A DNA stretch of 41,547 nt from a virus (taxonomy: Duplodnaviria; Heunggongvirae; Uroviricota; Caudoviricetes), in the IMG/VR virus record IMGVR_UViG_2529292882_000020, positions 1-41,547 of that record. One strand, written 5' to 3'. This document shows, piece by piece, positions 9,281-10,745 of this stretch; position 1 is the first letter of the stretch, and each line of letters begins with the position of its first letter. The notes under the pieces are model-generated. The model did no database searches and was not told the origin of the DNA. It saw nothing but the letters and a program-made list of their open reading frames with translations. A program made the position numbers and the translations under genes.

Positions 9281-9769
9281 ATGAGTCTGTTAAATGACGT
9301 TCAGAAATTCATTGAAGCCCATCCGGGGTGTACTTCCGGAGACATTGCAGATGCTTTTGCTGGTTACTCACGGCAGCGCGTTCTGCAGTCAGCAAGCAAG
9401 TTACGTCAGAGTGGGCGTGTGGCTCACCGTTGTGAAGGGGATACACGCAGACATTTCCCGCACCTGACTGAGAGAGCGCAGGAGCCGGAACCACAACCAG
9501 TTCGTGAAACCAGACCTGTGCGCAATTTCTATGTCGGCACTAACGATCCCCAGGTGATTTTGTGCCTGACCCGCCAGGCTGAAGAACTGGAGTCCAGGGG
9601 CTTATTCCGTCGAGCTGCAACGGTGTGGATGGAGGCATTCCGTGAAAGCCACTCCCAGCCAGAACGAAACAATTTTCTGGCGCATCGTGAGCGGTGCTTA
9701 CGGAAAAGCAGCAAGCGCGCTGCATCGGGTGAAGAGTGGTATCTGTCAGGGAATTACGTGGGGGCTTAA
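9281..9769 (+). CDS. PerC-like transcriptional activator family protein (tentative)
   Basis: ATG 9281 with GGGGG RBS; C-terminal ELESRGLFRRAATVWMEAF motif resembling PerC; TAATG coupling to next gene. Confidence 0.4.
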   Translation: MSLLNDVQKFIEAHPGCTSGDIADAFAGYSRQRVLQSASKLRQSGRVAHRCEGDTRRHFPHLTERAQEPEPQPVRETRPVRNFYVGTNDPQVILCLTRQAEELESRGLFRRAATVWMEAFRESHSQPERNNFLAHRERCLRKSSKRAASGEEWYLSGNYVGA

Positions 9770-10422
9770 TGAGTAATAAATATTGCCAGGCGCTGGTGGA
9801 GCTGCGGAACAAACCAGCCCATGAACTGAAGGAAGTGGGCGATCAGTGGCGCACGCCGGACAACATTTTCTGGGGAATTAACACCCTGTTTGGCCCGTTT
9901 GTTCTGGATCTGTTCACTGATGGTGATAACGCCAAATGTGCCGCTTATTACACTGCGGAAGACAACGCGCTGGCGCATGACTGGTCTGAACGTCTTGCGG
10001 AGCTTAAAGGTGCTGCCTTTGGTAATCCCCCGTACAGCCGCGCCAGTCAGCATGAGGGGCAATACATCACCGGCATGCGTTACATCATGAAACATGCCAG
10101 TGCTATGCGTGATAAAGGCGGGCGCTATGTTTTCCTGATCAAAGCTGCCACCAGCGAAGTTTGGTGGCCGGAAGATGCAGACCATATTGCTTTTATTCGC
10201 GGGCGTATTGGTTTTGAACTGCCAGCCTGGTTTATCCCGAAGGATGAGAAGCAGGTGCCGACAGGAGCTTTCTTCGCTGGTGCTATTGCTGTTTTCGACA
10301 AGACCTGGAAGGGACCGGCAATCAGCTACATCGGGCGCGATGAACTTGAGGCATGTGGTGAAGCCTTTCTGGTGCAGGTTCGCCAGCAGGCGGAAAAACT
10401 GGTCAGGGAGATGGCGGCATGA
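9769..10422 (+). CDS. phage DNA N6-adenine methyltransferase (Dam-like)
   Basis: FGNPPYS motif (NPPY catalytic motif IV); ATG at 9769 overlapping upstream stop. Confidence 0.7.
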   Translation: MSNKYCQALVELRNKPAHELKEVGDQWRTPDNIFWGINTLFGPFVLDLFTDGDNAKCAAYYTAEDNALAHDWSERLAELKGAAFGNPPYSRASQHEGQYITGMRYIMKHASAMRDKGGRYVFLIKAATSEVWWPEDADHIAFIRGRIGFELPAWFIPKDEKQVPTGAFFAGAIAVFDKTWKGPAISYIGRDELEACGEAFLVQVRQQAEKLVREMAA

Positions 10423-10745
10423 CGACGTTAACTCAATGCCAGCAGCAGGTGCTGGATATGCTGATTTCTTACCAGAAAGAGCGTGGCTTTCCGCCAACCA
10501 ATCAGGAGGTGGCAACCATGCTGGGATACCGTTCAGTGAATGCAGCGGTAGAGCATCTTCGTGCACTGGAGAAAAAAGGCGTCATCACGATAAAGCGTGG
10601 CGTGGCCCGGGGGATAACGCTTCATACCGCGGTGAAGGACGACGACAGCGAGGCGGTCGGGATTATCCGCGCACTGCTTGCCGGTGAGGAAAACGGCAGG
10701 CTGCGTGCAGCCCACTGGTTACATGAGAGGGGCCTGAAAGTATGA
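10419..10745 (+). CDS. LexA DNA-binding-domain-like protein (winged helix only, no peptidase domain)
   Basis: 108 aa; LTQCQQQVLDMLISYQKERGFPPTNQEVATMLGYRSVNAAVEHLRALEKKGVI matches the LexA N-terminal domain pattern. Confidence 0.5.
   Translation: MTTLTQCQQQVLDMLISYQKERGFPPTNQEVATMLGYRSVNAAVEHLRALEKKGVITIKRGVARGITLHTAVKDDDSEAVGIIRALLAGEENGRLRAAHWLHERGLKV

Follow-up and report, generated by a model that had tools for sequence, protein, structure and literature searches.

Three genes in the early operon of a common E. coli/Shigella prophage type: independently assorting genes for a YfdN-type putative regulator, an orphan Dam-type methyltransferase and a protein with a LexA-type DNA-binding domain

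The 41,547-nucleotide stretch of viral DNA analysed here (the window; IMG/VR record IMGVR_UViG_2529292882_000020) carries, at positions 9281 to 10745, three plus-strand open reading frames which a first-pass annotation had located there and described as a regulatory and modification trio: a PerC-like activator, a Dam-like methyltransferase, and a protein comprising a LexA-type DNA-binding domain (LexA-DBD). The analysis confirms both the presence and the naming of the three genes, yet finds that they assort independently and form no unit. The region probably belongs to the delayed-early rightward operon of a lambdoid prophage of the SfII/SfV/mEp460 type that has integrated at thrW, in which the three are independent, facultative accessory genes and not a dedicated three-part system.

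The first gene (9281–9769, plus strand) encodes a YfdN-type PerC-family protein of 162 amino acids, or of 164 if the GTG start at 9275 given by PGAP is used. It is followed on the same strand by the genes for an orphan phage Dam-type N6-adenine methyltransferase of 217 amino acids (9769–10422) and for the 108-residue LexA-DBD protein (10419–10745). Immediately upstream lies the gene for an O-like replication initiator (8337–9278, plus strand), which has an N-terminal HTH_36 winged helix (Pfam, 4.3e-11) and a DnaD-like C-terminal part, and which matches phrog_391, 'replication initiation O-like', at 1.3e-135. Immediately downstream is the gene for a RusA Holliday-junction resolvase (10742–11131, plus strand; PF05866, 7.3e-15). 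All of the junctions are tight: the TGA stop of the O-like gene (9276–9278) is followed two bases on by the ATG at 9281, which is itself preceded by AGGGGG; the PerC-like and Dam genes meet in TAATG (9767–9771); and the Dam/LexA-DBD and LexA-DBD/RusA junctions are both ATGA overlaps (10419–10422 and 10742–10745), the second of which joins the LexA-DBD stop to the rusA start. No terminator-like site was found on the plus strand within 9281–10745. The description of the three genes as translationally coupled and early was thus borne out, except that the coupled chain is one of five genes, headed by the O-like gene and ending with rusA, and all five would be translated as a single coupled series.

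The three genes belong to the early rightward operon and are flanked by the cI/cro/cII-like region on one side and by Q on the other, Q being placed downstream by synteny with annotated loci. A candidate pR-like promoter for this operon, based on its match to the consensus, lies at 7148–7176 on the plus strand (TTGACC, a 17-nt spacer and TAGCAT). The cI-type repressor gene (6479–7105, minus strand) encodes HTH_3 (Pfam, 1.1e-10) and Peptidase_S24 (9.2e-28) domains, and because the repressor carries Peptidase_S24, the prophage is expected to be SOS-inducible. A tRNA-Thr gene (1369–1444) adjoins the integrase gene.

The domain assignments of the first-pass annotation withstood profile searches, in that all three lie above curated cut-offs and Pfam, NCBIfam and PHROGs agree with each call. 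In related loci, dN/dS values of 0.05–0.3 indicate purifying selection on each of the three genes; the value for the LexA-DBD gene in the window-like group is biased low by the choice of loci according to their similarity to the LexA-DBD protein. The block shows 97–99% nucleotide identity to phages SfII, SfV, mEp460 (mEp460_4F5) and cdtI and to Stx2c and Stx2a phages, and the LexA-DBD protein also occurs in SfV, SfIV and phage cdtI. Both RefSeq and the SfII record already name the genes alike, a near-identical PerC-like gene being entered in RefSeq as yfdN, 'PerC family transcriptional regulator'. The block was thus already known, being near-identical in named phages, annotated alike in SfII and RefSeq, and present in 2703 of the 5426 complete E. 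coli genomes; its genes are ordinary accessory genes, annotated before, of a prophage type that is very common in E. coli and Shigella. What results is a confirmation of annotation: published phage genomes and thousands of E. coli assemblies give the genes the same names. A literature search returned no biochemical or genetic study of these proteins from phages of this group. An uncleavable LexA-type DNA-binding protein is present in roughly one in two complete E. coli genomes, among them those with Stx2c, Stx2a, cdt and serotype-converting Shigella phages.

The idea that the genes constitute a trio fails on comparison with related prophages, which mix them freely. Architectures were compared in more than 200 IMG/VR loci; a scan with the family alignment returned near-identical loci only, and distant alleles were queried singly. 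The slot between the PerC-like and LexA-DBD genes may be empty, or it may hold Dam, a Dam fusion, an MT-A70 enzyme, or Dam together with a C5 methyltransferase, the occupants having been identified by Pfam as MT-A70 proteins, Dam fusions and a C5 methyltransferase. Of the loci in which the LexA-DBD gene is near-identical, 74 could be scored, and 24 of these lack a methyltransferase; other LexA-DBD alleles follow MT-A70 or C5 methyltransferases. The PerC-like and LexA-DBD genes are facultative too. When 35 species-representative loci were anchored on RusA, a LexA-DBD reading frame ended at the rusA start in 20, read through into RusA in two, and was missing from 13. The position upstream of the LexA-DBD gene is thus a hot spot for the exchange of orphan methyltransferases from at least three families, the recognition of which aids the annotation of prophage epigenetic cargo.

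The identity of the LexA-DBD protein is clear from its match to LexA_DNA_bind (PF01726), which reaches 69 bits against a cut-off of 23.7 over residues 1–65. Its score against TIGR00498, 70.1 bits, falls under the cut-off of 110.95, and the match covers model positions 1–91 of 203. Profile searches found no Peptidase_S24 domain in the protein, whose chain stops at residue 108, so the first-pass description of a protein lacking the autopeptidase domain is correct. The accompanying description of a protein consisting only of a DNA-binding domain does not hold. In the AlphaFold2 model, the LexA-type winged helix (residues 1–68, with the recognition helix at 40–52) is followed by two further helices, 75–87 and 91–102, and this C-terminal hairpin (75–102) is retained in homologues down to 40–50% identity. 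Residues 2–70 are about 50% identical to the N-terminal domain of E. coli LexA (1lea/3jso), and Foldseek superposes the model on 3JSO with an rmsd of 1.5 Å over 68 residues. The hairpin probably stands in for the C-terminal domain of LexA as the dimerisation element.

E. coli LexA contacts DNA through Ser39, Asn41, Ala42, Glu44 and Glu45 (PMC3091678). At these five positions the sequence of the window protein reads S, N, A, V and E, such that four are kept and Glu44 is replaced by valine. Ser39 and Asn41 are invariant across the family, and since some alleles alter Glu45, the family as a whole does not share one common specificity. The motif LLAGE, which aligns with the VAAGE of LexA at its Ala84-Gly85 cleavage site, was considered as a relict of that site and rejected, the glycine being Asn or Lys in other family members. 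A literature search on LexA-DBD-only phage proteins returned nothing specific. Quite probably, the protein is a dimer that recognises a specific DNA sequence at some target.

Whether that target is the SOS box is more doubtful. The suggestion made at first pass, that the protein could compete with host LexA for SOS boxes, is plausible on the basis of the recognition-helix residues and the timing of expression. The protein would be made only after induction, by which time host LexA would have been cleaved; it might bind CTGT-type half-sites, in host SOS boxes or elsewhere, and could thereby act in lytic growth as a repressor to which RecA makes no difference. On the other side, the replacement of Glu44 by valine in the recognition helix would count against SOS-box binding, as would the change of Glu45 in some alleles and the spacing of a hairpin dimer, which need not fit CTGT-N8-ACAG. 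Action at SOS boxes is possible, although doubtful. The full proposal, in which the 108-residue protein is a RecA-insensitive LexA mimic that is expressed from pR after SOS induction, dimerises through its hairpin, re-occupies host SOS boxes, and shuts down the SOS regulon in lytic growth, is tentative and rather unlikely as it stands.

Were it true, such a mimic could silence SOS-induced toxins, division inhibition and mutagenic polymerases, as well as competing prophages and colicins under LexA control, and the divergent LexA-DBD alleles would represent a tuning of the SOS takeover. Re-repression of SOS genes after induction would also affect the induction dynamics of toxin phages and competition between prophages.

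LexA operators borne by the phage itself were likewise considered and set aside, and the lack of any clear set of SOS boxes in the prophage also counts against the SOS-box idea. The prophage contains no perfect CTGT-N8-ACAG and 19 one-mismatch SOS sites, compared with 13.5 expected. One site lies within three mismatches of the 16-mer SOS consensus, at 37810–37825 upstream of the EcoRII-type methylase gene; it was equalled in 8 of 100 shuffles, and no promoter consensus was found over it.

Alternatively, the LexA-DBD protein might work with or regulate RusA or another phage function and not host SOS genes, for instance by binding a phage site or by modulating recombination or late gene expression. 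The linkage between the two genes is consistent with this: beyond the overlap of the LexA-DBD stop with the rusA start in the window, RusA begins no more than 12 nt from the end of the LexA-DBD match in 199 of 228 loci anchored on the LexA-DBD gene. Moreover, LexA-DBD alleles fall to 40–50% identity while the flanking RusA proteins remain at 70–76%, which is the pattern of a specificity protein co-evolving with its own sites. Yet RusA acts alone as a resolvase, its homologues occur without a LexA-DBD gene in the 13 loci noted above, and no conserved candidate operator was found in the window. A role of this kind is unlikely.

The product of the second gene gives a full-length match to PF05869 (156 bits against a cut-off of 28.1) and scores 255.6 bits against the TIGR01712 equivalog, the cut-off for which is 97.05. 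From the translation, the Dam catalytic motif (D/N)PP(Y/F/W) is intact as NPPY at residues 86–89 (nt 10024–10035). Its neighbours are the PerC-like, LexA-DBD and RusA genes, and no nuclease gene adjoins it, in agreement with its first-pass description as an orphan N6-adenine methyltransferase. The EcoRII-type restriction-modification system at 37850–40574 is 27 kb away and is of the m5C type. A defence-system reading was discarded: among PADLOC profiles, Dam matches MTase_II and oMTase, which are generic methyltransferase labels, and the other two proteins match nothing meaningful. With respect to specificity, family membership makes it likely that this orphan enzyme methylates adenine in the GATC sites of replicating phage DNA; this specificity is extended from the family and from its T1, HP1 and VT2 (VT2-Sakai) Dam enzymes. 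Such activity would maintain complete modification of the phage DNA while it replicates rapidly, and likewise in hosts, or in the face of nucleases, for which unmethylated GATC is a weak point. GATC is neither unusually depleted nor enriched in the window, with 156 sites observed and 162–202 expected.

Substrate calls made from annotation can nevertheless be wrong, because the MT-A70 enzyme of the Stx2a phage phi-PA8 (M.EcoPA8orf6770P), a phage 'DNA adenine methyltransferase', methylates 16S rRNA and not DNA when paired with the adjacent winged-helix protein PNB-2 (PMC10810198). By analogy with this precedent, a flanking winged-helix protein, whether of the YfdN or the LexA-DBD type, could be the targeting subunit of the methyltransferase. 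Winged-helix genes overlap the methyltransferase gene on both sides, and in every architecture that has a methyltransferase, its gene is the immediate upstream neighbour of the LexA-DBD gene or of a 75-residue reading frame preceding that gene. The LexA-DBD allele type also tracks the methyltransferase type, but such a correlation is expected from plain linkage of neighbours. Furthermore, the slot is empty in the 24 of 74 window-like loci described above, and both winged-helix genes are still kept there under purifying selection; three unrelated methyltransferase families occupy the one slot; and in some loci a methyltransferase abuts RusA with no LexA-DBD gene at all. In addition, the PNB-2-like protein of phage P13374 (ORF08) has no significant similarity to YfdN, and its match to the LexA-DBD profile is a marginal one of 40 helix-turn-helix columns (hhalign probability 44%), for which reason homology to the phi-PA8 holoenzyme was rejected. 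With a PF05869 methyltransferase, no significant similarity to the PNB-2-like protein, and loci in which the enzyme is missing, the block does not belong to the phi-PA8 type, and a targeting role for either winged-helix protein is quite improbable.

The first protein matches PF06069 with 34.4 bits against a cut-off of 22.6, and phrog_1324 at 2.7e-78, in support of the label PerC-like. The Pfam match covers residues 98–149 only (profile positions 5–56 of 90), and the PerC domain makes up just the last third of a protein with two domains. The AlphaFold2 model, with a pLDDT of about 90 in both domains, comprises a winged helix (1–60), a disordered linker (63–85) and a three-helix PerC domain (90–149). 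Foldseek searches with residues 1–60 returned only generic ArsR/MarR-type winged helices, and no solved structure of a PerC protein was found by sequence. Its most likely role is that of a regulator or adaptor that binds DNA. A locus from a filamentation screen in UTI89 was also considered and set aside; it overlaps this module at its O-like and PerC-like genes and misses the LexA-DBD gene, and the paper resolved no single gene.

The virulence link drawn at first pass, by which the protein would activate host regulators such as LEE1/ler, is weak and very improbable: although the Pfam match exceeds its cut-off and PerC and PchABC do activate ler (PMC5931665), the window protein is built differently from these, with its extra winged helix, its orthologue YfdN is found in non-pathogenic K-12, its gene lies in a lytic early operon and is not a separately promoted moron, and strong ler activation is confined to the group 1 Pch proteins, with none from the divergent homologue PchD and less than two-fold from PchE (PMC5931665). 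A role in LEE activation is thus not indicated.

Comparison with known systems places each of these genes among its relatives. The closest counterparts are SfII_42-44 of Shigella phage SfII (KC736978), annotated as 'PerC transcriptional activator family protein', 'DNA adenine methylase' and 'LexA DNA binding domain protein', and SfII, SfV (dam, orf42), mEp460, cdtI and Stx2c phages all carry the equivalent genes with the same order and overlaps. Relative to SfII and its kin, the block in the window shows point differences only, whereas the far end of the prophage carries other cargo, namely PD-T4-3 and the EcoRII-type system, and its DUF968 gene is interrupted by a nonsense codon.

The PerC-like protein is the orthologue of YfdN from prophage CPS-53 of K-12, and shares its C-terminal three-helix domain (PF06069) with YfdN, with PerC from the EPEC plasmid pEAF, and with PchA/B/C from EHEC prophages. 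PerC and PchABC are single-domain proteins of about 90–105 residues, in contrast to the 162-residue window protein with its added winged helix and linker. The methyltransferase resembles the phage Dam family (PF05869/TIGR01712) in its full-length match, NPPY motif, orphan status and place in a phage early region; it differs from relatives in the same slot, which have C-terminal extensions of 70–240 residues or precede a C5 methyltransferase. In the phi-PA8 pair of M.EcoPA8orf6770P and PNB-2, too, a small winged-helix gene overlaps that of a prophage 'orphan adenine methyltransferase' on one transcript, but the enzyme is MT-A70 and not PF05869, the locus lies beside int/xis, and the partner is unrelated in sequence.

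Finally, the LexA-DBD protein has in common with E. coli LexA (1LEA, 3JSO) the winged-helix fold and Ser39, Asn41, Ala42 and Glu45. Unlike LexA, it has neither the S24 peptidase and dimerisation domain with its Ser119/Lys156 dyad nor the conserved Ala-Gly cleavage site, the C-terminal domain being replaced by a helical hairpin of 34 residues, and it is therefore beyond inactivation by RecA-stimulated self-cleavage.

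Profile searches support the three domain assignments made in the first-pass annotation (PerC, Dam-like methyltransferase and LexA DNA-binding domain, or LexA-DBD), and PHROGs concurs with all of them. PerC PF06069 matches only residues 98-149 of the YfdN/PerC-like protein (34.4 bits, cut-off 22.6), while the Dam protein, with an NPPY motif at residues 86-89, matches PF05869 (156 bits) and TIGR01712, "phage N-6-adenine-methyltransferase" (255.6 bits, cut-off 97). Since no nuclease gene adjoins it, the methyltransferase is indeed an orphan. Residues 1-65 of the 108-aa LexA-DBD protein match LexA_DNA_bind PF01726 (69 bits). 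As proposed, it lacks an autopeptidase domain: the profile search gave no Peptidase_S24 match, and the full-length LexA model TIGR00498 fell short of its cut-off (70.1 against 110.95 bits), with only positions 1-91 of 203 matched.

The three genes are already known, being annotated in many phages. In SfII (KC736978) they are named "PerC transcriptional activator family protein", "DNA adenine methylase" and "LexA DNA binding domain protein", and in RefSeq yfdN/PerC family, phage N-6-adenine-methyltransferase and LexA family transcriptional regulator. A 2.2-kb block shares 97-99% identity with mEp460_4F5, with SfII and with several phages of the Stx2c and Stx2a types, and 2703 of 5426 complete E. 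coli genomes contain it; SfV, SfIV and phage cdtI also carry the LexA-DBD protein.

According to the ORF listing and a reading of the sequence, the YfdN/PerC-like gene occupies 9281-9769 (162 aa; PGAP prefers a GTG at 9275, giving 164 aa), the Dam gene 9769-10422 (217 aa) and the LexA-DBD gene 10419-10745 (108 aa), all on the + strand. Upstream, the O-like replication initiator gene (8337-9278) ends in a TGA that is followed by two bases and the ATG at 9281, itself preceded by AGGGGG. The subsequent junctions are TAATG into Dam, ATGA into the LexA-DBD gene and ATGA again into rusA (10742-11131), directly after it. These overlapping or abutting junctions bear out the suggested translational coupling, but the coupled set comprises five genes, from O-like to RusA, rather than three. 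A consensus scan revealed no + strand terminator-like site inside 9281-10745 and placed a pR-like site at 7148-7176; an S24-type cI repressor gene (6479-7105, - strand) and a cII-like gene also lie upstream. Barring an internal promoter, the operon is not expressed in the lysogen. A tRNA-Thr gene (1369-1444) adjoins a proA-like gene and the integrase, and the prophage is therefore integrated at thrW.

The genes further downstream are KilA-N, DUF968/HNH and Q, the last of these placed by synteny with annotated relatives. A premature stop at 12247-12249 breaks the DUF968/HNH gene (11950-12249 and 12304-12984), which in relatives is intact and encodes 329 aa; near 12099 it also has an in-frame tandem duplication of 39 bp. 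Between Q and holin, a 248-aa gene (13415-14161, - strand) has no Pfam match; the N-terminal half of its product matches PADLOC PDC-M68A (7.5e-27) and HNH-endonuclease effector profiles, making it a candidate defence moron. Cargo near the far prophage end (36715-40574) comprises a PD-T4-3 GIY-YIG defence protein (36715-37539, - strand; PADLOC 2.7e-140) and a restriction-modification pair, an EcoRII-type methylase (37850-39325, + strand) and endonuclease (39360-40574, - strand).

Over residues 2-70 the LexA-DBD protein shares approximately 50% identity with the N-terminal domain of E. coli LexA, and its predicted structure superposes on the LexA-DNA complex 3JSO to 1.5 Å over 68 residues. It had been described as this domain only; however, the model adds a C-terminal helical hairpin (residues 75-87 and 91-102) that persists among close relatives and even among alleles sharing only 40-50% identity. 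A role for this hairpin in dimerisation would fit the weak Foldseek matches to regulators of the MarR/MepR, MecI and MntR types, which carry helices in addition to the winged helix. Of the residues with which E. coli LexA contacts DNA, namely Ser39, Asn41, Ala42, Glu44 and Glu45 (PMC3091678), four of five are kept (S, N, A, V, E). An LLAGE motif lines up with the region in which LexA is cleaved, but was rejected as a cleavage site, its glycine being Asn or Lys in relatives. The protein is thus a LexA-type binder incapable of self-cleavage. Many distant relatives (P0252, P0253, P0268, P0272, P0273, P0276 and P0279) have two LexA-type domains per chain, in two matched stretches of proteins of 140-350 aa; these would be single-chain pseudo-dimers, in keeping with a requirement for two such domains at each operator.

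The 108-aa protein is probably a sequence-specific DNA-binding dimer of some kind, which would dimerise via the hairpin and bind CTGT-type half-sites. Because it would appear once RecA-driven induction has removed LexA, an uncleavable protein of this type could re-close SOS promoters. The free N-terminal fragment of LexA, as Neher and colleagues reportedly found in 2003, remains a repressor and is normally cleared by ClpXP. Nevertheless, SOS boxes are a doubtful target: Glu44 is replaced by Val, Glu45 is changed in some alleles, and the geometry of a hairpin-mediated dimer need not match that of an SOS box. A search of the whole window found no convincing SOS boxes. Its only site within three mismatches of the consensus, CTGTTTAAATATCCAG at 37810-37825, precedes the start codon of the EcoRII-type methylase by 25 nt and is covered by no promoter consensus; at least one such site arose in 8 of 100 shuffles.

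IMG/VR loci were fetched for the window allele and three distant LexA-DBD alleles, and the neighbouring genes were classified by tblastn and Pfam. Among 74 scorable window-like loci, 49 have O-like, PerC-like and Dam genes, 24 have O-like and PerC-like genes without a methyltransferase, and one lacks the PerC-like gene. Upstream of the P0254-like allele is an MT-A70 methyltransferase with a 75-aa ORF, or nothing; upstream of the P0244-like allele a 390-aa Dam fusion, Dam with a C5 methyltransferase, or nothing; and upstream of the P0246-like allele Dam with a C5 methyltransferase. The PerC-like and LexA-DBD genes are therefore separated by a slot of variable methyltransferase content. In the window (9769-10422) and related prophages (among them loci L095, L190, L084 and L086) it is empty or holds Dam, extended Dam, MT-A70, or Dam with C5; C-terminal Dam extensions span 70-240 aa, the C5 enzymes are 620-670 aa, and MT-A70 comes with the 75-aa ORF. 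In 199 of 228 loci RusA begins no more than 12 nt after the LexA-DBD gene. The reverse association is weaker: of 35 RusA-anchored loci, taken from one genome per species, 20 have a LexA-DBD ORF that stops where rusA starts and two more have one that reads through into RusA; 13 have no such ORF, and in some of these a methyltransferase abuts RusA. With the slot empty or differently filled, and LexA-DBD absent at some RusA loci, the genes are not a unit, and the view of them as a functional trio finds no support. Between alleles, identity is 40-50% for LexA-DBD and 24-40% for PerC-like proteins, against 70-76% for RusA, 65-82% for Dam and 50-73% for DUF968; the greater divergence of the first two is what would be expected of binders that determine specificity. 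All genes have a dN/dS of 0.05-0.3 within groups, the window-like LexA-DBD value being biased low by the choice of loci.

Judged by its family and by the Dam enzymes of T1, HP1 and VT2, Dam would methylate GATC on phage DNA. In Stx2a phage phi-PA8, an MT-A70 enzyme annotated as "DNA adenine methyltransferase" is almost inactive alone, forms a 1:1 complex with PNB-2, encoded by the winged-helix gene immediately upstream, and in that complex prefers 16S rRNA and raises spontaneous induction (PMC10810198). A similar holoenzyme of Dam and a winged-helix protein is an improbable, minority hypothesis here, because the P13374 counterparts are dissimilar and the slot is facultative: the P13374 methylase is MT-A70, and the overlapping 118-aa ORF08, beside int/xis, is not significantly similar to YfdN and matches the LexA-DBD profile only marginally, in the HTH.

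The YfdN/PerC-like protein is an orthologue of K-12 YfdN (prophage CPS-53). Its AlphaFold2 model (mean pLDDT 76, approximately 90 inside domains) places a winged helix at 1-60, a disordered linker at 63-85 and a three-helix bundle, the PerC domain, at 90-149; as modelled, it is a two-domain protein and not a PerC domain alone. Foldseek matched the N-terminal part to generic ArsR/MarR-type winged helices only, and neither sequence nor Foldseek searches found a solved PerC relative. Residues 96-129 of the PerC domain (gene at 9281-9769) give a sub-threshold match to the ANR (AraC negative regulator) model NF033650 (20.1 bits, cut-off 32), a hint that these small helical regulators may be related. 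A filamentation screen of a UTI89 expression library recovered a fragment with several genes of the same module (PMC6206680); this fragment (locus L003, NC_007946 4997073-4999597) holds the Rha 3' end, a 75-aa ORF, O-like and PerC-like genes and the 5' part of Dam, without the LexA-DBD gene. Overexpressed yfdN (ASKA) also turned up in a glycogen screen; neither screen assigns the protein a function. In a yfdN deletion background, ler::lacZ was clearly activated by group 1 Pch proteins only, with no activation by PchD and less than two-fold by PchE (PMC5931665). A virulence role should therefore not be assumed for this YfdN-type gene, given these weak effects of PchD and PchE and because PerC and PchABC are single-domain proteins, whereas the YfdN/PerC-like protein here has two domains.
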